64,000 bases of DNA from Patescibacteria group bacterium (GCA_041747555.1 JBGTEY010000003.1:19127-83126); one strand, 5' to 3'. Counted from the stretch's first letter, positions 20,712 to 40,147 are shown. The notes: generated by a model from the sequence alone, not told the origin. A program made the numbers and translations.

Positions 20712-21899
20712 ATGAGTGCGCGCCTAAACCTGCAGAAATTACTGCTTGTAGTCACCTTAGTCTTTTCATTTTTCTTGAGTGCTTTGGTGCCAACAAAAGT
20801 TGCGGCTCAAAATGCATGCAATCCCTCAATACTTGACCACAATATCGAGGCTACTTACTTTGACGATGATCCAGACAATTCGATGAATATTACGGTCAAT
20901 AATCTGATTAACGGATCACTTTATTCGATACGAGTTATCGACTCGACTGGACTTGCTCTATCTGATGTCCAAATAAATTCAGGTGGAAATGGTCAGATCA
21001 CCACTATTATAAGTGCATCACTCGATCCTGATGTTTTTGATTATGATGTTGGTCTGGTTGGATCAGTTCCTGGATTCAGGCGGGTTACACTTTTTGGCGA
21101 TGGAATAGGCGTATGTGAAATCGCTACATTTTATATTATTGAAGAAAGTCTCATTTTAGATGACTACGAAGTATATCAAAACATTGGCGGTCAACAATGT
21201 TCTGAGAAAAATGGAGGCTGTTTAAACACCACACAACCAATTGTTTTTGAGACAAGAATAATATCTGCTTCTACTGGGGATGGTGTACCCGACTTGAATA
21301 TTTTGCATAACAGGAGTGGGGCGGGCAATCAATTACCAGCAACATACCTTGGAAATGGTGTATATAGGAGTAGTCATCCCCCCATGGACGATGGAACATA
21401 CACCATGTACGTAGAGGAGAACGGAACATTAAGTAACCCAGACATAGGTGATTTTTCGTTTACCGTCTCAATTGACTGCGATTCTTGTGTCCCACCTGGA
21501 GACATTACTGACGATTCAGTCAATCCAGTCGAAGATATTTACAACTTTTGCAATCAAATCAACGACGCTTCTCAACGCGCTGACTGCCTTGACTGTGCTG
21601 GAGGTCGGGGTGATTACAACGGTGTCTGGACTGCAGTCGGCTGTATTTCAAGAGAGCCAACCAGCATTGCGAGGACCTTCATTAGAATTGGTCTCGCTAT
21701 GTCAGGCGGTGTTGCTTTGCTCATGATTCTTGGTGCTGGCTTTATCCTTGCTACATCAGAAGGAGACCCCAAGCGCACTTCTGAAGCCAAAGAAATGGTG
21801 ACTGCAGCGGTGGTCGGATTACTATTTGTGATATTCTCAGTTGTAATTCTACAATTTATTGGATTTACCATCCTACAAATACCTGGGTTCGGAGGATGA
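20712..21899 (+). CDS. Secreted Cys-rich protein with C-terminal VirB2/TrbC-like two-helix pilin module
   Basis: Signal peptide ending VAAQN, then a ~280 aa Cys-rich domain. The C-terminus IGLAMSGGVALLMILGAGFILATSEGDPKRTSEAKEMVTAAVVGLLFVIFSVVIL has the same TM1-charged loop-TM2 layout as the small pilin-like paralogs downstream. Confidence 0.5.
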   Translation: MSARLNLQKLLLVVTLVFSFFLSALVPTKVAAQNACNPSILDHNIEATYFDDDPDNSMNITVNNLINGSLYSIRVIDSTGLALSDVQINSGGNGQITTIISASLDPDVFDYDVGLVGSVPGFRRVTLFGDGIGVCEIATFYIIEESLILDDYEVYQNIGGQQCSEKNGGCLNTTQPIVFETRIISASTGDGVPDLNILHNRSGAGNQLPATYLGNGVYRSSHPPMDDGTYTMYVEENGTLSNPDIGDFSFTVSIDCDSCVPPGDITDDSVNPVEDIYNFCNQINDASQRADCLDCAGGRGDYNGVWTAVGCISREPTSIARTFIRIGLAMSGGVALLMILGAGFILATSEGDPKRTSEAKEMVTAAVVGLLFVIFSVVILQFIGFTILQIPGFGG

Positions 21900-21903
21900 T
21901 GAA

Positions 21904-22566
21904 ATGAATACCGGAGTACTTAAAGCAATACTTGCGCGACTCAGTCTTCACCTTCTTGCTGTCGTGGTGTTATTTGGTATTTCTCTGATCGGGAATCCTG
22001 CAAAAGTGTCCGCTCAAAACATATTGCAATGTGGCACAGCTTTTTATTCAGATGAAGACCCCCCACCAATATGCCAATGTAGTTCTGGGGAAAGTCCATA
22101 CTTTGGTGATCTCGTCTGTTGCGGCTGGGTTTTCTCAAATCCAGATACCGGACAGCTTGCATGTGTTAGCACAAACTCAAATCCTTTTGACCCAGATATA
22201 GAGGGTGGCGACATTATTATCACCGAAGGTGTCTCAAATGCTACATTTGACATTCTCAATCCACTCCAAATTGGTGGTGGGGAAAACATAAATGTCGAAG
22301 CAGCCTCAGACTTTGCGACAGATCTCTCCACCCCTGGCGGTATAGTCACTAGACTACTTGAATTTGCCTTTCCCTTGGCGGGGTTATTGCTGTTCCTCAT
22401 GCTTGTCTGGGGTGGATTCGAAATCTTGGCTGGATCTGCCACCAAAAAATCAGTTGATGCAGGAAAACAAAGAATTACCGCAGCAATTCTGGGATTTTTA
22501 CTCCTGTTTGCAACCTACTGGATAGGACAACTACTCGAGGTGGTTTTTGGGGTAGTGATTCTTTAA
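21904..22566 (+). CDS. Secreted protein with C-terminal VirB2/TrbC-like pilin module
   Basis: The start is taken at ATG 21904, preceded by GGAGGA; the ORF track's TTG at 21859 is unlikely. Signal peptide ...AKVSAQN. The C-terminus LAGLLLFLMLVWGGFEILAGSATKKSVDAGKQRITAAILGFLLLFATYWIGQ is the pilin-like module. Confidence 0.5.
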   Translation: MNTGVLKAILARLSLHLLAVVVLFGISLIGNPAKVSAQNILQCGTAFYSDEDPPPICQCSSGESPYFGDLVCCGWVFSNPDTGQLACVSTNSNPFDPDIEGGDIIITEGVSNATFDILNPLQIGGGENINVEAASDFATDLSTPGGIVTRLLEFAFPLAGLLLFLMLVWGGFEILAGSATKKSVDAGKQRITAAILGFLLLFATYWIGQLLEVVFGVVIL

Positions 22567-24227: not shown

Positions 24228-24253
24228 AGTGTTTCCATTCGCAACCTATTATA

Positions 24254-24694
24254 ATGGTAATCACCAATATGTTCACTAGAGGAAAATCTCAATCTGCACA
24301 AGTAGTACCTCATTTTTTTATGGTGGTTTTGGTATTTTTTGCCTTATTTTTTGGTCTGTCACATCCAGCGCAAGCACAATGCGATCCCGGCAATGGAAGT
24401 ATTAACCTTGGAGAATGTTTGCGATTGAGTAATGATCAAGGTGTAGGTGAAGTTTACGAAAGCCCTGCATTTTTGGTAAATTTAATCGTAAGAAATTTGT
24501 TTGTTGCTGGGGCAGTCATTCTATTCCTCATGGTATTTTATGCAGGGTTTCTCTTTGTATTTAAAGGCAAAAAAGGTGTTGAGGATGCAAAAGCCGTTGC
24601 CACCAATGCTATTATTGGGTTTGTGGTCATGTTTTCTGCATACTGGATCGTACAAATCATCGCGGTCGTCACGGGCACTAATATACAACTCTAA
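24254..24694 (+). CDS. VirB2/TrbC-like pilin paralog 1
   Basis: Signal peptide ...SHPAQA|QC, a short Cys-containing head, then TM1 (LFVAGAVILFLMVFYAGFLFVF), loop KGKKGVEDAK, and TM2. The real start may be ATG 24269. Confidence 0.55.
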   Translation: MVITNMFTRGKSQSAQVVPHFFMVVLVFFALFFGLSHPAQAQCDPGNGSINLGECLRLSNDQGVGEVYESPAFLVNLIVRNLFVAGAVILFLMVFYAGFLFVFKGKKGVEDAKAVATNAIIGFVVMFSAYWIVQIIAVVTGTNIQL

Positions 24695-24697
24695 AAC

Positions 24698-25159
24698 ATG
24701 AACATACCTACACCAGTACATACTTGGCACAAATTTGCTTCTAAAACACCATTTTTGATGGCCGCATTGCTCGTAGTTGTTGTTTTTTTCTCCGCATATT
24801 CGCCTGTTTTAGCACAGATTGATGATATTGGCACGATTGATGTACCACCTGGTGTTGAACAATACAACACAAGCTCTGGTGCCGATATTGGCCTCGTGTT
24901 TTTCATCTCAAGAATGATTAGACTTGCGACTCTTGTTGCTGGATTGTGGGTCACCGCAAATACCATGATGGCGGGATATGTCTATCTTTCATCACAGGGA
25001 AAAGCCGATGCACACGGGAGAGTTCGAGACATTCTAACCATGAGCACCATCGGTCTGGTTCTAATTGTGACTGCCTACACCGTTGCGGGACTTTTAAGCT
25101 TGTTGATTTTTGGCGATCCCCTTTTTATTCTGAATCCTACTATTGAAGGGCCAGCATGA
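24698..25159 (+). CDS. VirB2/TrbC-like pilin paralog 2
   Basis: Same architecture: signal ...SPVLAQ, TM1, loop SSQGKADAHGR, TM2. The C-terminal motif is FGDPLFILNPTIEG. Confidence 0.55.
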   Translation: MNIPTPVHTWHKFASKTPFLMAALLVVVVFFSAYSPVLAQIDDIGTIDVPPGVEQYNTSSGADIGLVFFISRMIRLATLVAGLWVTANTMMAGYVYLSSQGKADAHGRVRDILTMSTIGLVLIVTAYTVAGLLSLLIFGDPLFILNPTIEGPA

Positions 25160-25725
25160 TTTCAAACATCATAAACCGAATCAAGTCATTCGCAATTCAC
25201 ACCGCAGTGATACTTGTGGTGTTTTGTGTCCCATTTTTTATCAACGCTCCCGTAGCTCAAGCACAATGCACAGGACCCGAACACGCTGGAAATTGTGTTG
25301 ATAATCGCACATGCATCAACTATCAAGGAGCATGGGTGGCGTTCGGTGCTGAGTGCGGATCTTCTTCTATTGGTGGTGTTCGAGCCCCCCAAGGTGTACA
25401 TCAATATAATCTTCTTGCTGGCACATACGGCTCAACTACTGCCAGTGGCCTGGTTGTGTTTGCCTCTAGAGCTATGCAGCTTGCGAGCATAGTTGCCGGG
25501 ATTTTCATGATGATCAACTTGGTTCGTGCGGGCTTTATTTATATCACCAAATTTGACCAAACATCAGCGCATCAGGAAGTACGAGATCTCCTCACTTACA
25601 GTGTGGTCGGTCTAGTAATCATGGTTTCTGCGTATGCTGGAGGTGGATTGATTGGTCTGGTATTCTTTGGAGACGCCACATTTGTTCTCAGTCCAACACT
25701 TGAGGGAGCAGTTCCACCACCGTAA
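25156..25725 (+). CDS. VirB2/TrbC-like pilin paralog 3
   Basis: Signal ...APVAQA|QC and a Cys-rich head. The C-terminal FGDATFVLSPTLEG motif is shared with paralog 2. The start overlaps the upstream stop (ATGA). Confidence 0.55.
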   Translation: MISNIINRIKSFAIHTAVILVVFCVPFFINAPVAQAQCTGPEHAGNCVDNRTCINYQGAWVAFGAECGSSSIGGVRAPQGVHQYNLLAGTYGSTTASGLVVFASRAMQLASIVAGIFMMINLVRAGFIYITKFDQTSAHQEVRDLLTYSVVGLVIMVSAYAGGGLIGLVFFGDATFVLSPTLEGAVPPP

Positions 25726-25777
25726 TAGTTAGATCGCCATCTGGTTTAACAACAGGTAGCTGGTATATAATGCAAAT

Positions 25778-26152
25778 ATGAAACTTTTCGTACCACAGCT
25801 AATTGCACAATTTGGAGGAGGTTTTGAACCTCCTGTTGATAATACATTCACCCAAGGTGCTGATTCGACACCAGAGGCAAACTTAGAAGTTATCGTGTCT
25901 AATATGCTTGGTGTGGTGACAGTTTTTGCAGGATTATTTTTCTTAATTTACTTTCTTATCGCTGCGTTTAAATGGATTTCTGCTGGTGGCGACACAGGCA
26001 AAGTTCAGGCTGCGCGCGATCAAATCATGAATGGAATTCTTGGATTAGTCATGGTGGTTGGCACGTACACAATTGTCGCCATAATTGGCGTCATCGTTGG
26101 ATTTAATATCTTGAATCCAGCAGCAATTATTAGAGATACATTGGTACCGTAA
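25778..26152 (+). CDS. VirB2/TrbC-like pilin paralog 4
   Basis: 124 aa with the loop SAGGDTGKVQAARDQ between two hydrophobic helices. The ATG lies 6 nt downstream of tggtatataat, suggesting a leaderless start. Confidence 0.5.
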   Translation: MKLFVPQLIAQFGGGFEPPVDNTFTQGADSTPEANLEVIVSNMLGVVTVFAGLFFLIYFLIAAFKWISAGGDTGKVQAARDQIMNGILGLVMVVGTYTIVAIIGVIVGFNILNPAAIIRDTLVP

Positions 26153-26611
26153 ATGAAAATAGCTGCAAATATCAATCAAATTCTCCGTACAAATCTAGGA
26201 ATCATATTTGTAGGACTGGTTATTCTACTGATGACAACATCCCCTGTGTCTGCGCAGATCACCAATCCAGTTATCGGTGAATTAGGTCAGGGCATCGGTG
26301 ATACGAGCGGCGACGAAAAATCAGCAGAGCTATTTGCCAACTTTTTTGTGAGCATTTGGCAAGCAGTGATTATGTTTGGTGGATTAACGGTGTTAGTGTT
26401 CTATATTTGGGGCGCATTTGAGTGGATTACTGCAGGAAGCGATACGAGCAAAGCAGAAAAAGCTCGATATAGAATCACCAATGCAACAATTGGCCTCATA
26501 CTGCTTATTAGCACATTTGTCATTGTTGGTTTTGTCAGCACCGCGCTCTTCGGAGAAGAGTTCCAAATTCTTAACTTAAGCCTACCAACCACACAAATTG
26601 GCGCACCATAA
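26153..26611 (+). CDS. VirB2/TrbC-like pilin paralog 5
   Basis: Signal ...SPVSAQ and loop TAGSDTSKAEKARYR. It is adjacent to the upstream stop. Confidence 0.55.
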   Translation: MKIAANINQILRTNLGIIFVGLVILLMTTSPVSAQITNPVIGELGQGIGDTSGDEKSAELFANFFVSIWQAVIMFGGLTVLVFYIWGAFEWITAGSDTSKAEKARYRITNATIGLILLISTFVIVGFVSTALFGEEFQILNLSLPTTQIGAP

Positions 26612-26623
26612 ATAAGGAAAACC

Positions 26624-27031
26624 ATGCTACTCTCCACTCTTATCGCTCAAGCAGAAATTAACCTCGGGCAAACAGCGATTGATCAAGGACTGCCTGGCAC
26701 CGCAGATGTTGATACCGCAGATTATGCCGGCGCCTTTGGAGTAATTCTTGGCAATATCATGAGTTTTGTGATGGTAATTGCCGCTCTTGCGGTACTTTTA
26801 TACCTCATCTGGGGTGCTGTTGAATGGATTACTGCTGGAGGAGATTCCGGAAAAGTAGAAAAAGCACGAACCAAAATGATGAATGCGATTATCGGTATTA
26901 TTGTTTTGTCTGCCGTAACAGCGATCTTTATGCTGATTCAAGAATTTTTAGGTCTGGAATTGCTTGATTTCGGAGGTGGTGGTCGATTTGATGATGTTGA
27001 CCTTGGGGGTGGTGGAGATGGCAGAAATTAA
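26624..27031 (+). CDS. VirB2/TrbC-like pilin paralog 6 (Gly/Asp-rich C-terminal tail)
   Basis: Loop TAGGDSGKVEKARTK, with C-terminal GGGGRFDDVDLGGGGDGRN. Confidence 0.5.
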   Translation: MLLSTLIAQAEINLGQTAIDQGLPGTADVDTADYAGAFGVILGNIMSFVMVIAALAVLLYLIWGAVEWITAGGDSGKVEKARTKMMNAIIGIIVLSAVTAIFMLIQEFLGLELLDFGGGGRFDDVDLGGGGDGRN

Positions 27032-27090
27032 TCATCACCTCTGCATCAACACCGCGATCGCTGCATTCAGCGAAATCAAAACCCTCAACT

Positions 27091-27124
27091 AAAGTAAAGC
27101 ACTTGACGTACGAAAATAAATCCA
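27091..27124 (+). promoter_or_regulatory. Sigma70-like promoter (TTGACG-18 nt-TATAAT) with downstream AAGGAG SD for paralog 7
   Basis: The sequence cttgacgtacgaaaataaatccatgtataatg is followed by ttaaggagtcaaATG at 27153. Confidence 0.5.
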
Positions 27125-27152
27125 TGTATAATGAATTAGTTGAAGTAAGTAC

Positions 27153-27605
27153 TTGAGATTAAGGAGTCAAATGACAAGACCAACATTCGATCGAGTAAAA
27201 CAGTATGCTGGATATGTTGCTACCTCAGCAACTGCCCTCGCACTATCTGCAAGAGGTGTTCTCGCCCAAGATGGAATTGATATCGGCACAGTTGAAACTG
27301 GAACTGGTTTTGCAACTGACCTTGGCTCAGTGATTACCGCTGTTCTTAGTTTTGTAATGATCATCGCTGCTCTGCTCGTCTTTCTCTACCTCATCTGGGG
27401 TGGAATTGAGTGGATCACATCTGGTGGTGACAAAGGAAAAACAGAAAGTGCTCGAAACAAAATTACGAGTGCTGTCGTGGGTATGATTATCCTCGCTGCT
27501 TCCTATGCAATACTGCTGCTCATCCTCAGATTCATCGGATTTGAAGACCTCGCAGATGTATTCGGTCAAGCATCAACTATTAATGAAGCTGGAGGCGCTG
27601 AATAA
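27153..27605 (+). CDS. VirB2/TrbC-like pilin paralog 7
   Basis: Signal ...GVLAQ and loop TSGGDKGKTESARNK. A canonical SD is present. Confidence 0.55.
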   Translation: MRLRSQMTRPTFDRVKQYAGYVATSATALALSARGVLAQDGIDIGTVETGTGFATDLGSVITAVLSFVMIIAALLVFLYLIWGGIEWITSGGDKGKTESARNKITSAVVGMIILAASYAILLLILRFIGFEDLADVFGQASTINEAGGAE

Positions 27606-27644
27606 CTTCCTGTATCACAACATTGCTTGTGAAAATAATAAAAA

Positions 27645-27667
27645 CCCCTCTCCGGAGGGGTTTTTTA
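27645..27667 (+). terminator. Rho-independent terminator closing the pilin array
   Basis: The stem cccctc-tccg-gagggg is followed by tttttt. Confidence 0.7.
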
Positions 27668-27739
27668 GTGCTGCAGGATTAGTCTGATCACACCCCACTC
27701 CACTCGCCTGATATTTAATAATCAGGTATACTACAGTTC

Positions 27740-28177
27740 ATGAAACCAACTCAAGAAAAGAAATCGCCTTTAAAACCGAAGGTCTCTGCGCTGGTTACAA
27801 ACGGCACCGCGTTCATCCTTAGTTTCTTTATTTTTGCCCAGCAAGCATTTGCTCAAAGCGCTTGGTCTGGCGTTTGTGTTGGTGGAGATGACAATGATGT
27901 TGCCACAATTCAAGGTCTAGAGTGCCTCATTGCCAATGTGTTTCAAGTAATTTTAACCGTTATTGGCTTGGCTGGTTTTGTAATGATGATTGTCGGTGCG
28001 TTCCGCTGGCTAGTTTCAGGTGGAAATACTAAGGGCGTCGAGTCTGCGCGCAATACCATTACCTTCGCTGTAGTAGGGTTGGTTGTGGCACTGAGCGCAT
28101 TTATCGTTCTCAACTTGATCGCATCATTCACTGGCGTCAACGTTATCACCTCGTTTGTGATTCCTGAGTCAACGTAA
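27740..28177 (+). CDS. VirB2/TrbC-like pilin paralog 8
   Basis: Signal ...AFAQS and loop VSGGNTKGVESARNT. The ATG is 7 nt downstream of tatact, giving a leaderless-type layout. Confidence 0.55.
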   Translation: MKPTQEKKSPLKPKVSALVTNGTAFILSFFIFAQQAFAQSAWSGVCVGGDDNDVATIQGLECLIANVFQVILTVIGLAGFVMMIVGAFRWLVSGGNTKGVESARNTITFAVVGLVVALSAFIVLNLIASFTGVNVITSFVIPEST

Positions 28178-28234: not shown

Positions 28235-31200
28235 GTGTTGAAAAACCTCTTCTCGCTAGCGGTATTTTTTGTGATGGTCGTCTTTGGACTATTCTCGGCA
28301 AATGCTGCACAAGCACAAACTGTGGGCTCACACCTAGGTGTAGGAGACATTGGTGGCCAAATTAGTAACATACAGGTGCTCAGGGCAAATGGTGCGGGTC
28401 AAGGTTTTCCGGTAACTGCTCTACTCAATGTCAACACCGCTGGCAATAACGAGCAAAGCATGCGAGATTTGCAGTTTGAGATTACTGAAGCGGGCTTTTA
28501 TCCCATTATTCGTATTACCCATGTGTGTGATCCTGCGCTGACTGAACCCTTTGTTAGAGCGGCTATTGATAATATTAACGCTACCTTTACTCAAGAACAC
28601 ACTATTGTTTATGGAAATGAAGTCAATAATGCTGCGGCAGAATGCCCTGACCCAGAGCAATATGTTCGGGAATACAACTGGATTAATGATATGGCCAATG
28701 TGGTGCCGGCAGCACTTGACTTTTACAACGGAGATTTCCCTACAAGCACATTCTTTACTGCTGGAAATGGAAGTGCAGGCACAATCTATAGCGGTAACGG
28801 ACCATTTGCTGCAAATGCCTATGGCTGTGTTGGTACGCTTGACCCAACTTGCGAACCTGCTACCACCGACACTCACGAACAAGGATATGCTCGCTATTCA
28901 AGTGCAGACTATTACATCCTCACCGAATTCTCACTCTCGCCCGAGGGTCGTGTGCCCGGAGCTCCAGACACCAACCTCGAAAAAGTTATTGAATTCATTC
29001 AAGGTCGCGCTGGAGACACTGGCGCCCGTTACATCACTCCCCTCGTCAGAAACGTCTGCAACAATGAAGGAGAATGGCTTTTGTACGTCAACGGCAGGCT
29101 ATTCACCATGAATAGTACCGAGGTTACCGATAATTGTGAGGGAAATCCTGGCGGGTATGGGGATGGATACCCATTTTATGATGTGAGTGATTCAGATTTT
29201 TACATTACTCCAATCAAATCACTGGGGCTGAACATCGATCCAGCGGCCAAATCTGCAGCAATTCGATCAGAACTTGCTCAATCTGGATACGAAGCATACT
29301 GCGCAATGGATGGAATAACGGTTCGCCCTGAATATAACTCAATGGACCTGATCAATCGCTTTTTGGAATTGCAAACAGAAGGGCGTGCCGATCCACTCCT
29401 TGGCGCAACCGCCAACTCTGTAGCGGTTCTAGACTTTACTACTGCTAAAACACCTGTTTGGCGAGATGTCGGTGTTGGCACTCGCAGATTTATGATGACA
29501 TCCCTTGAGGAATATTTTTCGTTCAAAGACGTGTATGACGTACCAGGCTCAACAAACGCAACTCGAGAAGTGGCTTCAGGAGCTATAAACTCACTCCTCA
29601 CCACACACCAACGCTGTGTTCAGTCTGCAAAAACAATCGTCGCAACCCAATTAATGTGTGAAAAACTTGAAGATCTTGGATCGTCGTGCGCATTGCGATC
29701 GAGAGAGGTCCCTGGGACCAACTATACGATGCAAACAATTATTGATGAGATGAATAAAGTAGCAGAAGCAACGGGCAATCACCCTAGAGCTGGAGAGGAA
29801 GTAGCATTTTGCGATGATGTTATTTACGACTTTGAGGAAATTTCTGAGATCACGCAAGAATTCAGGAAAGGTATCTTGAACGTCAATCTGCACATGGATC
29901 GAGCGTATAGATTAGCCTTTTTGGTTGCGCGGATTACAACACTTAGCCCTGGAGATGGCACGTTTGCGAATATGTTTAACTTCTTTACCGGAACCACCCG
30001 ATCTGGAATACCTCGAGATGAGGTGCTCATTATTGCTTTTAAAGTGCCAGATTTTGCTACAAACAGGGGTGGTGGTGAATCGAGTGGCAGCTACTACTGG
30101 GAAGACGCAGCATACTTAACCAGAAACGCACTCATAACTAAAGATAGAATCGCAGAAATAAATGACGAACTTAGAGCTGCGAAACGAAATGAGATCGAAG
30201 CAAACGCCAATAGTGCTGGAAATCGCTCGCAAGGTACGGGTGACAAGATTTTCTGCATCGATGGCGCATTTCCTGATGGAAACGGCTCACAAGCATGCAA
30301 AACACCCGTCGGCAAAGCTGTCGTCGACATTATTAACGGCAATGGCACCGCATGCTCAGAAGATATTGAGCCAGCAAATCAAATCTCTGATGCCGCCGGA
30401 CTCAATCCTATCCCCCCAGAGCAAAACACGGGCAAAATTTTCACCGCAGAGAATGGCGGAGATGTACTGATGAATCTATTTTTCGGAGATGGCACCCACC
30501 TCAGAAATGACGTCTACGATCCTCAAGCAGCCCGCACCACCCCCCAAGGTGCGACCTTTGGACAATTTCAAACAGTCTGGGATATCACACCAGATAGCTG
30601 GCCACCCACAGTTGGAAGTACTTCTGTTGAATTTTACTTAACATACCCGGCTGGATTTGAACAAGAATACATTGAACAAGTGTTAGCCGGCACCTTTTTT
30701 ACCCAACAAGAACTGGCTAACATCAGGGGGGAGAATCTAGAGATACCCGCTGATCCCGAACTTAAGGATCGATTCTCGATGATTGGTGGGCTGTTTGGAT
30801 TAAACACGGGCTCAATAAGTCATACATTTACCGATCCAGATGACTGCGAACTCGTAGAGCCAGAACCCATCATTGATCCAGAAACAGGTGAAGAAGTTAT
30901 CTATCCATACATTGATCCTGAAACCAAAAAACTCATCACAGGCCCTCCTCCACCCACTGAGGTTTGTAAAGAAAAAACCTTTTCGATCTCAATCGATACC
31001 GACCCTGTCGACTCGGTGCAGATTCTCGGCGCACGAATTGGCTTCTGGTCACGAACTGCACAACTCAAAATCAGCAGCTACTTCAGTCAGTCGCACGCAT
31101 ACCTTCTCTCTTGTAGCACCACAGAAGAATTCTTATTGGGAAATTGTGCCGGTGGTGCTCCCCCAGTTATTGCGGATCCAGTCCCAGATATTCCTCCGGT

Positions 31201-31759
31201 TGCTCGGTGTGAGGAGGGTAGTCCAAGAATTACCAGCGGCGAAAACGCACAGCATGTTTTCTCACTTGCCGATCCAAACTGTACCATCTATGAGGAGAGC
31301 GTTCACAACATTCCGGGCTGGAAAAATGAAAATGAATCCTATAGACCATGTGACGAACTGTACTCATATGTAGCCTGCACCTACCCCAACACGCTTATTG
31401 AAAATCAGGTGAATGCAGCAGGGGAATTTGTAGACGAAGGCGTAATGACCGCATGCGAATATGTCGTCCAAAGAGCGCAAGCTGCCGGCATCAGTCCCCG
31501 ATTCGCACTTGCAATGTGGGGTGAGGAGTCCGGATTTAGTAATTATGGCGGACCTGATTTGGGAGCAATATTTGTGGATTATCCCAACCTTGGTACACAA
31601 ATGACGGCATTTATTGGGGCGGTGAATGAGAACGATAATTACTTGGATTTTCTGGTTCAATACTCTGAAGGAACTTCGAATGTTGGCACGAACCGATTCT
31701 GCTCAAATCCCTGGTTCGTTGGTCGACTAAAAGAGTACCACGAATTTTTAGGACCTTGA
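28235..31759 (+). CDS. Large secreted protein (1174 aa), hypothetical; possible lysozyme-like C-terminal region
   Basis: Signal peptide MLKNLFSLAVFFVMVVFGLFSANAAQAQ with a GTG start. It is Cys-rich and contains short IDPET repeats. The C-terminal region ...RAQAAGISPRFALAMWGEESGFSNYGG loosely resembles glycoside-hydrolase/lysozyme ExxS motifs; this is a weak match. Confidence 0.5.
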   Translation: MLKNLFSLAVFFVMVVFGLFSANAAQAQTVGSHLGVGDIGGQISNIQVLRANGAGQGFPVTALLNVNTAGNNEQSMRDLQFEITEAGFYPIIRITHVCDPALTEPFVRAAIDNINATFTQEHTIVYGNEVNNAAAECPDPEQYVREYNWINDMANVVPAALDFYNGDFPTSTFFTAGNGSAGTIYSGNGPFAANAYGCVGTLDPTCEPATTDTHEQGYARYSSADYYILTEFSLSPEGRVPGAPDTNLEKVIEFIQGRAGDTGARYITPLVRNVCNNEGEWLLYVNGRLFTMNSTEVTDNCEGNPGGYGDGYPFYDVSDSDFYITPIKSLGLNIDPAAKSAAIRSELAQSGYEAYCAMDGITVRPEYNSMDLINRFLELQTEGRADPLLGATANSVAVLDFTTAKTPVWRDVGVGTRRFMMTSLEEYFSFKDVYDVPGSTNATREVASGAINSLLTTHQRCVQSAKTIVATQLMCEKLEDLGSSCALRSREVPGTNYTMQTIIDEMNKVAEATGNHPRAGEEVAFCDDVIYDFEEISEITQEFRKGILNVNLHMDRAYRLAFLVARITTLSPGDGTFANMFNFFTGTTRSGIPRDEVLIIAFKVPDFATNRGGGESSGSYYWEDAAYLTRNALITKDRIAEINDELRAAKRNEIEANANSAGNRSQGTGDKIFCIDGAFPDGNGSQACKTPVGKAVVDIINGNGTACSEDIEPANQISDAAGLNPIPPEQNTGKIFTAENGGDVLMNLFFGDGTHLRNDVYDPQAARTTPQGATFGQFQTVWDITPDSWPPTVGSTSVEFYLTYPAGFEQEYIEQVLAGTFFTQQELANIRGENLEIPADPELKDRFSMIGGLFGLNTGSISHTFTDPDDCELVEPEPIIDPETGEEVIYPYIDPETKKLITGPPPPTEVCKEKTFSISIDTDPVDSVQILGARIGFWSRTAQLKISSYFSQSHAYLLSCSTTEEFLLGNCAGGAPPVIADPVPDIPPVARCEEGSPRITSGENAQHVFSLADPNCTIYEESVHNIPGWKNENESYRPCDELYSYVACTYPNTLIENQVNAAGEFVDEGVMTACEYVVQRAQAAGISPRFALAMWGEESGFSNYGGPDLGAIFVDYPNLGTQMTAFIGAVNENDNYLDFLVQYSEGTSNVGTNRFCSNPWFVGRLKEYHEFLGP

Positions 31760-32922: not shown

Positions 32923-34611
32923 ATGTTGAAAAAAGCTGCCACTTGGCTATTGATCGCAGTCTGCGTTTCTAGTGCATTTTTTGCGCTATCTCCAAGTATC
33001 GCTTTTGCTCAGGATGAAGAATATGCACCCTACAGCGCAGGTCAGGCAATGCTTGATAAAGAGCAGTACGATGCAGCTATCCGAAATTGCGACACCCCCT
33101 CACTTGAGTGCTTAGTGCACCAAATTTATAAATTTTCGATGATTGAATCAGTTAATTCAATTGCATACCGAGAAGGTCTGTCCGGCCCTGATGCTGGAGC
33201 TGGCATTAATGGTGGTACACAGGTCGCAAGATCTGGAGGTTTTGTTGGTGATGTTTTTGGGCTAATTGGCACATTTTATGAACAACCTCCTGCACGCACT
33301 AATGTTTGGGTGGCTGACACACTTGAAAGCATGAATATCGCGCAGCCCGCACAGGCTCAAGGCCTTGGGTTTGCAGCGCTCGACCCTATTCTCGATCTCT
33401 GGAAATTATTTAGAAATGTAGCATATGTGTTTTTTGTAGTTATTTTTGTGATTATTGGTTTCATGATCATGTTTCGCACCAAAATAGGTGGTCAAACTGC
33501 CGTAACCGCCCAACAAGCCATCCCCAGCATCATTATTAGCTTGATACTCGTTACATTTTCCTATGCCATCGCTGGATTTATGATTGATTTGATGTACGTG
33601 ATAATGTTCCTGATGGTTGGACTCTTCGGCACAACGATGACCACACAACAACCAGATATCATTAGTTGGAACATACTAGAATTAATGGGACACCTTTTCA
33701 AACATCCTGAGATAAGTAGCTTTAGTGGTAATGTTGACACAATTACTACCATGATTGAGGGAATGGCTGACAATGAAGCAATTGCTGGTGTTGGTGGCTT
33801 AATTGGTGGCATCACCCTTACGTTTGTGCTGGCTATAGCAATCCTTATCGGCACGTTTAAGCTCTTCTTTGAGTTACTCAAGTCATACGCAAGTATTGTG
33901 CTTGATGTGATTATTGCCCCAATTTACTTGATGGTCGGTGCAATTCCCGGCAGACAAGGGGTGTTTAAAGATTGGATTCGCGACTTAGCTGGAAACCTTG
34001 CGGCTTTTCCTGCCGTGCTACTTATGACGATCTTATTTTATGAATTTAGCGAAAACCAAGCGTTTCAAAGTGTTGACGACTACGGTGGTTTCATGCCTCC
34101 ATTTCTATTAGGTAGAGGCCAACCTGGCGCAATATCTTCACTACTAGGCTTGGCAATTATTTTGGCACTACCAGAGATCGTGAAGGAAGTTAAGACTGCA
34201 GTTGGAGCTAAAGAAGGTATTGGTACGAAGATTGCCGGATGGGCAGCATCGACAGCGAAGCAAGGTGTACCGTTGGGTGGACGAGCAGCGAGCATTCCTA
34301 TTGGCGGTGCGCTCGGTGCTGCGGGCAAGATGGTTGGCAATTTACCTGAAGCTAGAAGAAACAAAAGTCTGGAACACTTATTTGACGGAACTCTTGGCGC
34401 AGCAAGAAGAGGCGCTGGCAGAGGTGTTGAGGCAACAAGTTGGGCATCGAGGTCTATGGGAGCAAATCAACCAGATGTTCTCAACCTCATTACAAACCCA
34501 ATTGATAAAGTGCTAGGAAGTGATTCTATGAGAAGACAAGAAGCGTTCCAGCAGGCATATGAAGACGTCTTCCAAAGAGGCAGGAGTGTCTCTTCTCGCG
34601 ACCCCAAGTAG
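32923..34611 (+). CDS. Polytopic membrane protein with signal peptide; candidate VirB6/TrbL-like T4SS channel subunit
   Basis: Signal ...SIAFAQ, a ~150 aa extracytoplasmic head, then 6 or more TM helices and a Gly/Ala-rich cytoplasmic tail. The call rests on topology, size and T4SS context only. Confidence 0.35.
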   Translation: MLKKAATWLLIAVCVSSAFFALSPSIAFAQDEEYAPYSAGQAMLDKEQYDAAIRNCDTPSLECLVHQIYKFSMIESVNSIAYREGLSGPDAGAGINGGTQVARSGGFVGDVFGLIGTFYEQPPARTNVWVADTLESMNIAQPAQAQGLGFAALDPILDLWKLFRNVAYVFFVVIFVIIGFMIMFRTKIGGQTAVTAQQAIPSIIISLILVTFSYAIAGFMIDLMYVIMFLMVGLFGTTMTTQQPDIISWNILELMGHLFKHPEISSFSGNVDTITTMIEGMADNEAIAGVGGLIGGITLTFVLAIAILIGTFKLFFELLKSYASIVLDVIIAPIYLMVGAIPGRQGVFKDWIRDLAGNLAAFPAVLLMTILFYEFSENQAFQSVDDYGGFMPPFLLGRGQPGAISSLLGLAIILALPEIVKEVKTAVGAKEGIGTKIAGWAASTAKQGVPLGGRAASIPIGGALGAAGKMVGNLPEARRNKSLEHLFDGTLGAARRGAGRGVEATSWASRSMGANQPDVLNLITNPIDKVLGSDSMRRQEAFQQAYEDVFQRGRSVSSRDPK

Positions 34612-34708: not shown

Positions 34709-37700
34709 CTAATGATCTGCAGCCTGCTGCTGCTCTTTGATGGAGGGCTCTCTGAGGTAGCGCTTGAGTTTTCTATTGAATCGAGCCTCAAACCACCACG
34801 GCGATCGAATTTTGAAATTGATAGCTGGGATCGTAAATTCAGGAATAGCTGGTAGCTTGACCTTTTTGGGCTTTTCGAATCCAATAGTTCTAAAGGCTTT
34901 GCCCCTCAACTTGGAGAACAGCCTTGTATCGTTGACATCTTCACCCTTCAGTCTGAGACTTGTACCGTCTACAATTTTTTGCACCACGTAATCCCTTAAT
35001 ACATCTGGGAAGGTCTCTGCTTTGTTAAAGAGCTCTACTGAAACATCTCTAAATGACTTTGCCTTTACGAGTCTAGTTGGTTTTTTCGACTTCTCGTCAT
35101 ACTGATCGTAAATATCTTTTACATACCTCAATATCATCTCCTGACACGCTCCGATGAAGACATCGTAATAACGTGTTCCAACTAGGATGGGGTAAATTCC
35201 CTTGAGAGGTGAAAAGGCTGAGATAATTTGTCCGATTCCACTCGAGAGATCGTCCTCGTGTGTCAAGGTTGGTGGCTTGTTTGCGAGATTCACAAACTCT
35301 AACCATGAATTCATCGTTTTTATATACTCTGTGTATGTAATACCGCCATAATCACCCCCATCTCTGTCCAGAATGAGGTCCCAAATATAAGGGAAGAATG
35401 CCAGATCATCACCAACTTCAATTCCCCTCATCTTAGAAAGTGTTATTCTTCTATCAACCAACTCTCTGGCCTCAATAAATTCTTCCACATTGTCATCACC
35501 TTTGACCTTGGTTTTCCATTCAGTTCCTGTATTCCCCCTATATTTGAACCTACTCACATCTGGTGAGCGCTCCCCAGTGCTCTCAGATAGTACTTTCGTA
35601 CCATAGCGATCATTTGTGGGGAGTCGCAAGACCTGCCAAAGTATTTTTAGTTCTTTGGGAACGAATGCGAATGAGCGAATTTTATACATGATGTAGGACA
35701 TTGGCGACGCCTGCTTAATTGCAGAAATATCCCATGTTGGTTTATTTGTCTCAATGTATGCTGCCAAGTGAGGTGCATAGGCCTTTGCCCGCAGTTCCCC
35801 GATGAGCGCCATGAGTTGTATCCCAGTAATTGAAGATGGTTTTAAATCTGGGAAGAGAGCCTGAAGGACGTCACCTATGTTCAATTTTCCTTGCTTAAGT
35901 TCGAAATCTCTAGGATTTCCAAACCTACCATAATCATGCTCTAAGGGAATTGGTCTCCCGTTAACCAACTTTGTCGAACTCGACTCAACTACGAGAAGTT
36001 TTCCAATCACTGCTCCAGCATCGTTGCGAACCACTGGCGTACCTCCCCTCCCCTTATCAATCTTATGTATGGCAGGGTCGAGTGAAACTCGAGCACCTCC
36101 CATGAGAACGAAATTTTCTTTCTTTATCTCCTTTAGGCATCCAATATAGTCACCATTTTTATTTTTCAGTGGATTGCCATTATCGTCAACGTATGTGATT
36201 GTGCCGGCTAGAAATAGTTCTTCGATTTTCTCTGCTGCTCTATAATTTTCGGGGTCACTGAGAAATTCACGCATATCTGCCAAGCCAACCTCACCGCTAA
36301 TTTTTGCTCTCGATTCATCAAGGCTATCCCAGGCAAGTTGATTAAAGACATCTGAATTAGCAGCCCCAATAAATGCATCCCACAACAGCAATTTAATTGC
36401 CCATTCTTTTTTAGCTCCTATTTCTTCAGCAATTTCTCTAATTCTTTCTGCTTTCTTTAAAATTACTCCTTCGGAACCAGAACCTTTAGATGGTTTTTCT
36501 GATGAAACAATTTGACCGTATAGGACCTCCAGCTCATTTTCAAGCCTTTCCCTCTCTGGTAATCGCTGAGCAATATCAATTGCCTCAGTGAGGTGCTCTA
36601 CCGCCTTGGCGTGTCTACCAGATAAGTTATTTTCTCCAACGAGGTAGTTAATTATTTCTATAATTATTGGATTGTGGTCGTAATTTGCTCTGTTAAGTAA
36701 ATCTCTTGTCTGAGCGGCTTGGTATGCAGCATCAAGCGCTATTTTTATTGCTTCAAGAGAGGCCTTGGTGTGTGCGTCTGCTCGACTAGAGTGTGGCGCG
36801 ATATTCGCCAAATCGATATCTAGCGTAGTGTCAACAGCATCTGATAGCGGCTTCACCAACTGTCTGTACTGAGCCACTTCTTCACGTTCTGTGCCTAGCT
36901 TAATAGCCTCGGCATTTCGTGCTTCTCTTTCGTTGGCTCGCTGCAGCAATTTCTCTAAATGTTGCTTTCTGAGTGCATCTGTCGTCCTACGCACCAATGA
37001 CTCAAGCCTTGACAACTGGTTCCTCAACTCTTGTTGTTGTTGAGCAAGGTCTTGTTGAGAGGCTGGTACGCCCGTGTTTAATATATCAAGCAAATTCTTT
37101 AGGAGACCTGCCTCATATTTTTGTTTCCAATCTTCAAATTCTTTGTTTTTTAATCTCTTCACCCGAGTCTCAACATCTGCCAAAACTTGCTCGGCTGGCT
37201 TGACATATTCCCGATCTAAGAAGTCGGCAACTTGCCTTTTATTTCCACGAGATGAGCCTGGAATTTCGGAGTCAGCAATAGCATCTTTCAACCCACTCAG
37301 AAAAGTTCGTAGCTTACTCACATCTCTATCTTTTTCTGGATTCCAGTCGGGTTCATTCGCCAATCTAGTGGCAATTGAGGTCATGAGTGGTCCAACTTTT
37401 TTGGCGTCATCGGGATGCTTATCTGCAGGCCAGTTGGCTACGTCAATTTCTCTTGGTTGCTGAGGTTGATCAGGTGGTTGTGCCAGAGGTTCGCCGGTGA
37501 GCGCTCTGACTTCGCGTATCAAATCGTCAATTTCATCACTCCTTGGGCCAATGCTCATGTACTCCCGCGAGAGCTTGTCAATTTCTTTTTCCAAAAGAGT
37601 TCGGCCATACACTCCTGCGTCCCTTTTCAAACCAAGTAGTCTATCCTTGAATGGTTGAAATAAGTCAGCAGCTTCAGCTTTCTTTTGTGGATCTTTCGCC

Positions 37701-37933
37701 TGATTCTGACGCAGAGCTGCAAGTTCTTTTGCCGTTTCTATCAAGTCAATTAAGTTATTTAATTGGTAAATATCACCCTCCGCCTCATTGGTGCGGTTAT
37801 CAAGAACGTCCGCTTTTTCATCCAACACCTCATGGTCTGACTTGGCATCATTAATGAGATCGTTTATTTCCTTCACCAAATCTTTAAGTGGTTTGGAGTA
37901 GTCTTCGCTTCGCGATGTGGTTTCTTTTACCAT
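34709..37933 (-). CDS. Large hypothetical protein (1074 aa), N-terminal coiled coil, no signal peptide
   Basis: A long uninterrupted ORF. The N-terminal 300 aa is heptad/charged-rich. No catalytic motif is recognised. Confidence 0.4.
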   Translation of the reverse strand: MVKETTSRSEDYSKPLKDLVKEINDLINDAKSDHEVLDEKADVLDNRTNEAEGDIYQLNNLIDLIETAKELAALRQNQAKDPQKKAEAADLFQPFKDRLLGLKRDAGVYGRTLLEKEIDKLSREYMSIGPRSDEIDDLIREVRALTGEPLAQPPDQPQQPREIDVANWPADKHPDDAKKVGPLMTSIATRLANEPDWNPEKDRDVSKLRTFLSGLKDAIADSEIPGSSRGNKRQVADFLDREYVKPAEQVLADVETRVKRLKNKEFEDWKQKYEAGLLKNLLDILNTGVPASQQDLAQQQQELRNQLSRLESLVRRTTDALRKQHLEKLLQRANEREARNAEAIKLGTEREEVAQYRQLVKPLSDAVDTTLDIDLANIAPHSSRADAHTKASLEAIKIALDAAYQAAQTRDLLNRANYDHNPIIIEIINYLVGENNLSGRHAKAVEHLTEAIDIAQRLPERERLENELEVLYGQIVSSEKPSKGSGSEGVILKKAERIREIAEEIGAKKEWAIKLLLWDAFIGAANSDVFNQLAWDSLDESRAKISGEVGLADMREFLSDPENYRAAEKIEELFLAGTITYVDDNGNPLKNKNGDYIGCLKEIKKENFVLMGGARVSLDPAIHKIDKGRGGTPVVRNDAGAVIGKLLVVESSSTKLVNGRPIPLEHDYGRFGNPRDFELKQGKLNIGDVLQALFPDLKPSSITGIQLMALIGELRAKAYAPHLAAYIETNKPTWDISAIKQASPMSYIMYKIRSFAFVPKELKILWQVLRLPTNDRYGTKVLSESTGERSPDVSRFKYRGNTGTEWKTKVKGDDNVEEFIEARELVDRRITLSKMRGIEVGDDLAFFPYIWDLILDRDGGDYGGITYTEYIKTMNSWLEFVNLANKPPTLTHEDDLSSGIGQIISAFSPLKGIYPILVGTRYYDVFIGACQEMILRYVKDIYDQYDEKSKKPTRLVKAKSFRDVSVELFNKAETFPDVLRDYVVQKIVDGTSLRLKGEDVNDTRLFSKLRGKAFRTIGFEKPKKVKLPAIPEFTIPAINFKIRSPWWFEARFNRKLKRYLREPSIKEQQQAADH

Positions 37934-38228: not shown

Positions 38229-38250
38229 CCTCTTAAACGAGGAGTTTTTT
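38229..38250 (+). terminator. Terminator-like hairpin (ctcctc-ttaaac-gaggag + T6) abutting the annotated start of the downstream gene
   Basis: Read directly from the sequence at 38229-38250. Confidence 0.45.
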
Positions 38251-40147
38251 GTTAGCCACACCAGAGAGATCCCCATCATTTAGGCACGCCAAAGTTCGAT
38301 TCGGTGAACGCGTGAACAGAAATCTTGATCAAATTTCTGCGCTGCTTTCCAGAAGAAAACATGAGCTTTGGGACTCAAGCGCATATTTTAATCATCTTTT
38401 GATCTCTAAAAATGCAAGGCAAAGCACGCAGCGTCTCAAGCTCGATCTCACCACTTTTTTCCATGAATACGTTGGCATGTTCTGGAAAAAAATCTATCCC
38501 TACTCCAAGTACGGTATTTTTGACGGGTATGACGTGCCAATGAGTCAGTTGGGATGGAATTTTGAAAGATTGCTCAAAAATGAAGGTAAATGCACAATTC
38601 GTGCCAGCCTCGAAACACTCGGAATGCAAACTTTCGAAGACTGGGCTGATGATGCAACAGTGCCAATTGGTGCAGCGCTGCTCTACATCAGTCCTCGGGG
38701 ATCAAGAACTAAAGAAAACTATCCAGGATTTGAAAAAGAAAATTATGTTTTTATCAATATTTTTCAAAAAATTGGTTTAAATCAGCACCAACTTATTCAG
38801 TACACGAGCTTTGACGGCGAGGATGCGCTTGAAAAATTACAGCTTGACGTGCTCAAGTCATGCACTGGATCGTCAATCACCACCCACTCCAATCAAGTAA
38901 ATACCGATGACTTATCACAATCACACAGCATTATCGCAAGGAAAATTAAACTCCCTACTTGTTTTTCAATCAAAGACATTGAAGAAAAAGTCTACGAACA
39001 TGAATCAAGTTGGCCGACTAAACGCAAGGATTTACCCCAAGTAGACGAAGTTCAGTTTGGGTTCGAGCTCGAGCGACTACTTAAATTCTGTGAATCTGCA
39101 TTCTTGACCCTAGCGCATCAAAATCACGAATCTTCTGAGGAGCTAAAACCATCACATCTGCAAAAATTTGCCGAATTCCACCAAGAAATTGATGGCGCAT
39201 CTTTACCACCAGAGAAACAATTTGACATACTCATCGCCTGCGCCCGGAAAGAATTTTTAAAATGGGTGCAAGATCATTCAGAAAACTACCACACCAAGTC
39301 GATCACACTGCAGCCACTTGCTCTGGAAAAGATCGTTGAGTTGTGGGGGCACGAATGTCTTAAGGAAACCAGGCAACTCAAGGGCAAGCAAAAATCACAC
39401 CTTAGAGAACTGCATGAGTCGATTGCTCTTGACCCAACTCTTCCGCTCATGAAGCTCTCAAGTCTTGCGCACTGCATTGCCTTCACTCCCCACTCAGTTG
39501 CACTGAATTTAGTAAAGTTTCCACAGGTAAGTTGGGGAGTCGGGATGTCTGCCCAGCTACTAAACCTTTCTTCTTTAGAAAAATCGGACGCGCTCGCGGA
39601 GCTCAAGCAACACTATGTGCAAAAAAACCTTTTTGGTCAGCGGTGGTATATTTTGCGAACTGAAAGTCATGAGTACACCGAACTCACCTGCATACTTAAA
39701 AATGGAGACGTGATTGGTCCGTGTGGCATTCCACTCAACGAAGATCGTGAATTTTGCCTATCAGCCGAAGCTTATGACCAGCTACTGTCAACGCTCAGCG
39801 TCAACAGTCCACACACAAAGCTTACTACGTTACAATCACATTTTAACAACTCAGATCTCACACAAGATGAAAAAAATCATGCAGATCAATTTATGACATT
39901 TCTCGAGACGCTTGTTCGACACACCGCAAGTTTACTCGAATTTATAAACAACGATTTTTACTCACCGCTTGCAAACCAGATACTTGCGCTCATAGAAGAA
40001 CTTCCCGATCCGCTTATGATTGTTAAAAGCCCTCATTTTTTTGTTAAAAAAATAGCAGTATTTCTCCAAGATATCGATGAAACCCTCCTCCCGCTCTTTT
40101 TCTCTCAAGAACTCCGCACCTCACCAACAGTGAAAAAAACGGTATAA
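38249..40147 (+). CDS. hypothetical protein (632 aa)
   Basis: A long ORF with no signal peptide. The TTG start at 38249 lies inside the T-run of a hairpin, so the true start may be downstream (first Met at codon 76). Confidence 0.4.
   Translation: MLATPERSPSFRHAKVRFGERVNRNLDQISALLSRRKHELWDSSAYFNHLLISKNARQSTQRLKLDLTTFFHEYVGMFWKKIYPYSKYGIFDGYDVPMSQLGWNFERLLKNEGKCTIRASLETLGMQTFEDWADDATVPIGAALLYISPRGSRTKENYPGFEKENYVFINIFQKIGLNQHQLIQYTSFDGEDALEKLQLDVLKSCTGSSITTHSNQVNTDDLSQSHSIIARKIKLPTCFSIKDIEEKVYEHESSWPTKRKDLPQVDEVQFGFELERLLKFCESAFLTLAHQNHESSEELKPSHLQKFAEFHQEIDGASLPPEKQFDILIACARKEFLKWVQDHSENYHTKSITLQPLALEKIVELWGHECLKETRQLKGKQKSHLRELHESIALDPTLPLMKLSSLAHCIAFTPHSVALNLVKFPQVSWGVGMSAQLLNLSSLEKSDALAELKQHYVQKNLFGQRWYILRTESHEYTELTCILKNGDVIGPCGIPLNEDREFCLSAEAYDQLLSTLSVNSPHTKLTTLQSHFNNSDLTQDEKNHADQFMTFLETLVRHTASLLEFINNDFYSPLANQILALIEELPDPLMIVKSPHFFVKKIAVFLQDIDETLLPLFFSQELRTSPTVKKTV

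Follow-up and report, generated by a model that had tools for sequence, protein, structure and literature searches.

The 64,000-nt stretch of DNA analysed here (the window; GCA_041747555.1, JBGTEY010000003.1:19127-83126) is the chromosomal origin region of a Patescibacteria group bacterium, with dnaA, dnaN, rnpA, yidC and khpB at 51.8-56.7 kb, and at positions 24254-28177 it carries a tandem array of eight genes for small membrane proteins, here numbered p1 to p8. It is likely that these genes encode pilins of the VirB2/TrbC superfamily (Pfam family PF18895) belonging to a chromosomal, monoderm-type type IV secretion system (T4SS), and that they make up a fixed set of specialised subunits, with the product of p7 as the major pilin and the others as minor ones. 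[quoted passage not shown] The evidence comes from family membership, the predicted fold, the T4SS context, the collinear orthology of the array in related genomes and the transcription signals within it.

All eight open reading frames (ORFs) within 24254-28177 lie consecutively on the + strand and encode proteins of 146, 153, 189, 124, 152, 135, 150 and 145 aa. Their paralogy is evident from pairwise BLASTP comparisons (15-49% identity, with E values of 1e-5 to 1e-32 for most pairs), and a multiple alignment of the eight reveals a shared core of ~72 residues that consists of two hydrophobic helices and a short K/R-containing loop. The heads that lie N-terminal of this core are 18-62 residues long and unalignable between the eight paralogs. 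An original prediction for this stretch had described eight same-strand paralogs of 124-189 aa with two transmembrane helices joined by a loop, and the ORFs, their lengths, the BLASTP results and a helix-loop-helix in every product agree with that description, as do an ATGA overlap at 25156 and an abutting stop and start at 26152/26153. The eight genes are thus real, but the family in the window is larger than was proposed and has ten members, two more genes, p0a and p0b, being located upstream.

PF18895 (T4SS_pilin) is the best Pfam match for all ten paralogs. Its gathering cut-off of 26.6 bits is exceeded by p5 (26153-26611, + strand; 30.6 bits), p6 (26624-27031, +; 35.2 bits), p7 (31.7 bits) and p8 (27740-28177, +; 26.8 bits), the last gene of the array; the remaining six paralogs, at 17.6-26.2 bits, fall short of it. 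Among the matches listed, the domain is carried by 954/954 database relatives of p7, and some homologues bear the NCBI name 'pilin'. In a set of 61 aligned family members, all 61 match PF18895, 33 match PF04956 (TrbC/VirB2; E ≤0.01, best 2.8e-8) and two match CagC; within the window, PF04956 is matched by p1 alone, and weakly so (E 0.009). The AlphaFold2 model of p7 is a helical hairpin (H48-83, H88-121) with a predicted local distance difference test (pLDDT) score above 90, and Foldseek ranked the archaeal conjugative pilin 8dfu first for this model, albeit with E = 2. A VirB2/TrbC-like T4SS pilin identity of the array products is supported by these matches and by the VirB4, VirB3-like, VirB6-like and VirD4-like genes of the region, in line with what had been predicted. 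The alternative raised with that prediction, an undescribed family of secreted two-helix proteins, was wrong, because the family is the one that Pfam describes as PF18895.

It is highly improbable that the genes form an unrelated family of small membrane proteins, such as holins, bacteriocin or immunity proteins or another two-helix group, whose likeness to pilins stems from composition. Weak sub-threshold Pfam matches to a holin family, MscL and WLS-like_TM do show that hydrophobic composition produces noise, but PF18895 ranks top for every paralog and every one of the 61 relatives, more than half of which also match TrbC/VirB2, the gene context contains no phage or bacteriocin genes, synteny with T4SS genes is conserved, and the best structural match is to a conjugative pilin. 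Homology to a holin or bacteriocin, which the original prediction had set against its own pilin reading, was confined to a single match of p4 to Phage_holin_3_6 at E 0.15, and such an identity was rejected.

Collinear arrays are present in the close relative L002 (GCA_049289655.1) and in the more distant L003-L005, and in each case the best window match of every gene is its positional counterpart by a wide margin, with 56-91% identity for L002 and 39-73% for L003-L005. Furthermore, 58 of 59 complete 10-kb loci from different species contain 6-12 same-strand pilin-domain genes (mode 7), so that eight genes are ordinary for the clade. The heads are 46-97% identical between the window and L002, and the pooled rate of nonsynonymous substitution (dN) in this comparison amounts to 0.13 in the heads, 0.07 in the cores and 0.41 in the leaders. 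Hypervariable heads and a variable pilus had been expected, and a comparison of dN over synonymous substitution (dS) between heads and core had been suggested as a check; rapid diversification of the heads was not seen, and the heads belong to 1:1 positional orthologues. They differ between paralogs, are conserved between orthologues and, judging from the substitution pattern, are under purifying selection. At the DNA level only the segment coding for the loop is recognisably repeated within the array (62-72% identity), and no long tracts of high identity were found there, which led us to reject recent duplication or gene conversion.

These comparisons bear on the possibility that the paralogs are alternative, interchangeable major pilins whose heads have diverged for antigenic or host-range variation, as has been proposed for Bartonella and Anaplasma and suggested for patescibacterial arrays (PMC12102498). 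The paralogs do differ most in their exposed heads, the heads of the p0a family diverge much faster than the pilin core, and there are lineage-specific gains. One of these is p3 (25156-25725, +), which has a 62-aa head with four Cys residues and shares the ATGA overlap with the preceding p2 (24698-25159, +); it arose from p2 by a lineage-specific duplication (44% identity) and is missing from L004 and L005. Another is an extra p7-like copy in L003. However, the order of the genes and their 1:1 orthology hold from species to species, the dN of the heads is only about twice that of the core and well under that of the leaders, and gene-conversion-like repeats are absent. Moreover, most of the genes are tightly coupled in operons and therefore are probably co-expressed rather than switched, and the transcription signals that a major subunit should have are seen at a single gene. 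Interchangeable pilins are therefore quite unlikely, and paralogs that are ancient, collinear and individually conserved fit a division of labour rather than antigenic or host-range switching.

The gene with these transcription signals is p7 (27171-27605, +), which encodes 144 aa and appears to be monocistronic. It starts at the ATG at 27171, downstream of an AAGGAG ribosome-binding site, and the identical 144-aa database protein P0001 has the same start. A sigma-70-type promoter, TTGACG-N18-TATAAT, is located at 27103-27132 on the + strand; it has 11/12 consensus matches and is kept upstream of the p7 orthologue in L002-L005. An intrinsic terminator with an 11-bp stem followed by a T-run lies on the same strand at 27640-27666, directly after p7 and before p8. 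The strong terminator that was thought to close the set of eight genes is present as a stem-loop with T-run, but it is placed between the seventh and the eighth gene and closes only p7. The internal promoters predicted at about 25757 and 27091 are broadly supported by a TATAAT box at 25766-25771 in front of p4, which is conserved in two relatives, and by the site at 27103-27132.

The bracketing of p7 is not restricted to the window. A TTGAC-N17/18-TA(T/C)AAT element before the gene and a strong stem-loop with T-run after it were present in 5/5 closely examined genomes. Over the species loci, a strict promoter pattern was matched at 29/75 p7 junctions versus 1/413 other array junctions, a terminator followed the p7-like gene in 44/69 loci versus 0/419 other junctions, and the median upstream gap was 85 nt at p7 versus 8 nt elsewhere in the array. 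The p7-like gene is followed by one further pilin gene in 47 loci and by two in 21. No other array gene has so short a head, so good a ribosome-binding site or so conserved a core as p7, and none is as similar to its counterparts in the distant relatives L004 and L005 (62% and 60-73% identity for p7); towards L003, p8 is equally conserved. Its closest paralog is p6 (49% identity). Since p7 alone lies between a consensus promoter and a terminator, these sequence patterns suggest that it is likely the major pilin among co-transcribed minor pilins.

Near the starts of p1, p4 and p8 we noticed -10-like boxes (TATAAT at 24249-24254 and 25766-25771, TATACT at 27727-27732) that are not followed by a Shine-Dalgarno sequence and that are conserved at least in the nearest relatives. 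The ATG follows at a distance of 6 nt for p4 (25778-26152, +) and 7 nt for p8, and of 17 nt for the likely start of p1 (9-13 nt in p1 orthologues), and p7 is the only gene with a long 5′ untranslated region containing AAGGAG. This arrangement suggests leaderless or very short-leader mRNAs for p1, p4 and p8. For p1, the first pilin gene of the array, the longest ORF begins at 24254, but this ATG overlaps the -10 box at 24249-24254 and in L002 the start of the orthologue corresponds to 24272; the gene therefore probably extends from 24272 to 24694 (+). For p1 and p7 alike, the start is thus probably later than that of the longest ORF.

The leaders of the proteins are more diverse than the cleavable signal peptide that had been proposed for all eight. 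Clearly hydrophobic leaders were found in five of the eight products (p1, p2, p3, p5 and p8), and the 32-residue leader of p7 stays under the hydropathy threshold; in all six of these proteins the leader ends in an A-x-A-like site. In p4 and p6, however, there is no Sec-type hydrophobic leader and the head is preceded by only 10 and 8 residues, respectively (MKLFVPQLIA|Q and MLLSTLIA|Q). Equally short leaders occur in the orthologues of p4 and p6 and in distant p1 orthologues, which argues that they are real and not start-codon artefacts. Several array members in the window (25778-25810 and 26624-26650) and in L002-L005 have such leaders of 8-13 residues, and these end in the same hydrophobic ...(L)IA|Q motif that closes the full signal peptides. 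Hairpins of the p4 and p6 type could insert via YidC without Sec. The recurrent N-terminal Gln of the predicted mature proteins and their Gly-rich C-termini had also brought up head-to-tail cyclisation as in VirB2/TrbC; this idea was dropped, as some orthologues have A|E or A|A sites instead.

The heads of p1, p3 and p8 contain Cys pairs, as had been anticipated for some of the heads; there is one such pair in p1, and that of p8 (WSGVCVG...LECL) is conserved. The GGDxGKxExAR loop, thought to be shared by all eight proteins, is indeed present but limited to p4-p8. An FGDxxFxLxPTxEG tail, proposed for some members, was found in p2, whose C-terminus is FGDPLFILNPTIEG, as well as in p3 and partly in p5.

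Upstream of the array, and outside 24254-28177, the same C-terminal domain is carried by the two big-head paralogs p0a (20712-21899, +) and p0b (21904-22566, +); uppS plus a gene of the amino-acid-kinase family on the opposite strand come between them and p1. Equivalent big-head genes immediately precede the array in some relatives (L017, L026, L050, L052), and the window therefore represents a ten-gene array that has been split by an insertion. The p0b protein, whose head is rich in Cys and ~120 aa long, has 220 aa as called in L001 (235 aa if the longest ORF is taken, which starts at 21859), a PF18895 score of 26.2 bits and 39% identity to p7 over 77 aa. In the 395-aa p0a protein, PF18895 occupies residues 331-383, and homologues of 380-450 aa likewise have this domain at the C-terminus. 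In the AlphaFold2 model of p0a (pLDDT 85), a signal peptide is followed by two immunoglobulin (Ig)-like beta-sandwich domains, then by a neck rich in Cys and, at the C-terminus, by the pilin hairpin, and in Foldseek searches the head resembled the tandem Ig-like domains of filamin, invasin, SiiE and RbmA (E ~1e-6 to 1e-5). Many homologues match only the C-terminal ~30% of p0a, at 55-66% identity, the heads having diverged much faster than the core. The natural reading of this model is that p0a may be a pilin-anchored adhesin.

The T4SS genes of the region lie on both sides of the array. A VirB4-type ATPase of 709 aa (49478-51607, +; PF19044, PF12846, PF03135) is preceded by a gene for a 426-aa protein resembling the VirB4 N-terminal part (48194-49474, +), which matches the mycoplasma family NF045975 (E 6e-9, profile positions 103-281) from integrative and conjugative elements (ICEs). 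The 426-aa ORF ends with TAA, and one codon (ACG) later the ATG of the ATPase follows in the same frame; the pair may represent two genuine genes, a partner of the TrsD type or one gene that has been interrupted. Upstream of it are genes for a PrgI-family (VirB3-like) membrane protein (46941-48158, +; PF12666, 30.2 bits, above the cut-off) and for a 1335-aa protein with M23 peptidase and NAGPA domains (41911-45918, +), a candidate T4SS cell-wall hydrolase. The product of 32923-34611 (+) has a signal peptide and at least seven hydrophobic segments in a hydropathy scan and no family match; its gene is syntenic in L002 and L003, and we consider it a VirB6-like candidate. A candidate VirD4/TraG-like coupling protein is encoded on the other strand at 3991-6327 (-; PF10412, 31.9 bits, and PF01935), and among the window proteins scanned there was no match to a relaxase family. 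Synteny of the array with T4SS genes is conserved in relatives.

Directly after the array, a gene at 28235-31759 (+) encodes a secreted protein of 1174 aa without a Pfam or NCBIfam match, which is kept in synteny in L002 (1182 aa) and L003 (1110 aa). A 'WGEESGF' stretch in its C-terminal part bears a putative resemblance to lytic transglycosylases. Between the VirB6-like gene and the M23 hydrolase gene are three large ORFs of 1074, 632 and 555 aa (34709-37933 on the - strand, 38249-40147 and 40156-41823), for which we found no predicted transmembrane segment, no Pfam match for any of the three and no NCBIfam match for the 632- and 555-aa products. They could be cytoplasmic components or substrates associated with the T4SS.

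In the mechanism that we propose, each array product would enter the cytoplasmic membrane as a helical hairpin that exposes its head and C-terminal tail on the outside and keeps its short basic loop in the cytoplasm. Signal peptidase I would remove the leader where one is present, with a predicted cut after Ala that usually leaves an N-terminal Gln, and the VirB4 ATPase and its VirB3-like and VirB6-like partners, whose genes lie 5-24 kb downstream, would extract the hairpins and polymerise them into a pilus or a wall-spanning conduit that may be used in host-cell contact. The array would represent a fixed set of specialised subunits and not interchangeable variants. Its own consensus promoter, strong ribosome-binding site, own terminator, smallest head and highest conservation would mark p7 as the major subunit, p1-p6 and p8 would be low-abundance minor pilins with paralog-specific, conserved heads, and the big-head paralogs, especially p0a with its two Ig domains, would be candidates for tip or adhesin subunits. 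The polymerisation, the topology and the major and minor roles are inferred. A function in host contact is suggested by analogy with Southlakia epibionticum, in which a series of pilin genes is essential (Wang et al. 2023, PMC10633639).

A heteropolymeric pilus is compatible with the data and is the reading that we favour. A more specific version, which we hold only tentatively and which may well prove wrong, is a pilus of fixed composition consisting of the major pilin p7 and seven to nine conserved minor pilins, including p0a as an Ig-domain adhesin that replaces VirB5, within a monoderm-type system whose pilin derives perhaps from a small two-helix protein of mycoplasma-type ICEs and not from diderm VirB2. 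We know of no T4SS with such a major/minor pilin architecture.

There are also indications for a less far-reaching assembly. NCBIfam NF045849 (Mbov_0395 family pilin-like conjugal transfer protein) is matched nearly end to end by 58/61 family members (best E 8.8e-10), and pLS20_p028 is matched by one member. These matches give a hint that monoderm (MPF-FATA-related) systems may have had the pilin-like hairpin from the outset, without co-option from diderm T4SSs, homology not being established. They are also consistent with the proteins being membrane-resident or wall-spanning parts of a T4SS channel, like the Mbov_0395 family of mycoplasma ICEs, with no extracellular pilus at all. The remaining machinery is of the monoderm type, and monoderm T4SSs are not known to make pili (PMC12857230). 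However, the two window proteins scanned individually, p7 and p6, score only 28.7 and 22.4 bits against the NF045849 cut-off of 40 bits, heads that are 20-300 residues long and carry disulfide pairs and Ig-like domains are easily understood in exposed structures, and a monocistronic subunit with predicted strong expression suggests a polymer. We therefore regard a pure channel function as unlikely; it would differ from the proposed mechanism only in how far the assembly extends.

Several points weigh against a pilus of specialised subunits. Half of the eight array genes stay under the Pfam gathering score, and a family-profile search of PDB sequences returned no VirB2 or TraA chain, the best match being MscL at E 0.15, so that sequence alone does not tie the family to a solved pilus. 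The array is ~20 kb away from virB4, and the intervening genes are uncharacterised. The promoter and terminator evidence is pattern matching in the sequence, and because dS between the window and L002 is saturated (>1), only the ranking of dN is usable and dN/dS remains qualitative. Finally, no patescibacterial T4SS pilus has been seen, other monoderm T4SSs lack pili, and monoderm T4SSs offer no precedent for one (PMC12857230). No structure or image of such a patescibacterial pilus was found in the literature that we searched, and papers on TM7x transcriptomics and Mycosynbacter cryo-electron tomography yielded nothing specific on these pilins. In the only genetically tractable patescibacterium the T4SS is essential; its role has been called 'completely unknown' (PMC11665869).

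Some observations on the related loci may be added. The nearest named relatives of the window are metagenome-assembled genomes of the Microgenomates group, Pacebacteria, Woesebacteria and Gottesmanbacteria, and a Logan contig from SRR28170463 carries an exact copy of the region. In L003 (6427-6951), L004 (7349-7900) and L005 (6463-7032), a gene for an ECF-type sigma factor and two small ORFs lie just upstream of the first pilin gene and are transcribed divergently from it; the kinase-family gene and uppS fill this position in the window. The array may have a dedicated regulator in this sigma factor. Many species-representative records with this Microgenomatia-type array (L007, L008, L010-L012, L029, L062, L070 and others) carry titles such as uncultured Pseudomonadales, Gammaproteobacteria, Vitreimonas, TM6 or Limisphaerales and probably are mislabelled or mis-binned.

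Compared with the pilins of well-studied diderm systems, VirB2 of the Ti plasmid, TrbC of RP4 and TraA of F, the array products share the small hairpin with a basic loop, the association with VirB4, an N-terminal leader, here with a predicted signal peptidase site in most, and, in some orthologues, detectable similarity to PF04956. Those systems, however, rarely have more than one pilin gene, with two at most, and they include a VirB5 tip protein as well as an outer-membrane core complex, whereas the window has ten paralogs with longer heads, some of them without a Sec-type leader, and neither VirB5 nor an outer membrane. The archaeal Ced and Ted pili (PDB 8dfu, 8dft) belong to DNA-import systems, and the sequence identity is a mere 14-16%; to our knowledge, none with a multi-paralog array has been reported. 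The mycoplasma ICE protein of NF045849 likewise has two helices, in 80 residues, and comes from a monoderm (MPF-FATA-related) system, but it is headless and single copy, unlike the window paralogs, and homology is suggested and not established. Tandem virB2 paralogs within a T4SS locus are known from Bartonella and Anaplasma phagocytophilum, an analogy cited in PMC12102498, and are read there as antigenic variation. The window paralogs, in contrast, are ancient, collinear and under purifying selection, which argues for a division of labour. A functional analogy is provided by type IV pili and type II secretion, in which one abundant subunit with strong transcription signals of its own is accompanied by co-transcribed low-abundance paralogs that differ in their exposed parts; their fold and assembly machine are entirely different and there is no homology.

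The closest comparison is with the pilin arrays of other Patescibacteria, of which this locus is a typical example. The novelty that the original prediction implied for an eight-gene array therefore does not hold: besides the series in S. epibionticum ML1 (SEML1_0006-0019 region; PMC10633639) and the 'Sec secreted array' of Nanosynbacter lyticus TM7x, Quinonero-Coronel et al. 2025 screened 3,035 patescibacterial genomes with PF04956 and PF18895 and reported 441 arrays, each made up of 2-11 pilin genes (PMC12102498). Such arrays are particularly numerous among Microgenomatia and Saccharimonadia (PMC12102498; PMC10633639; PMC12857230). The window fits the VirB2-like array as defined in PMC12102498, with ten genes in two blocks, two non-pilin genes between them and VirB4 present. 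It shares with the published arrays the same Pfam families, the tandem same-strand arrangement that sometimes includes a non-pilin gene, the low identity between members (25% mean and 54% maximum within published arrays, 15-49% here), the monoderm-type T4SS without relaxase, the position near dnaA and, for many, the class Microgenomatia. There is thus no difference in kind, and the locus does not add a new kind of system. PMC12102498 leaves a monoderm or diderm origin of the pilin open and suggests that variability may aid adaptation to different hosts. What is added here, and was not found in those passages of the published accounts that we read, is the conserved order with 1:1 orthology, the bracketed p7, the short-leader members and the Ig-domain member. 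With its conserved paralog order, one bracketed gene and an Ig-domain member, the locus allows the vague notion of variable pilins for different hosts to be replaced by a testable model of major, minor and adhesin subunits.

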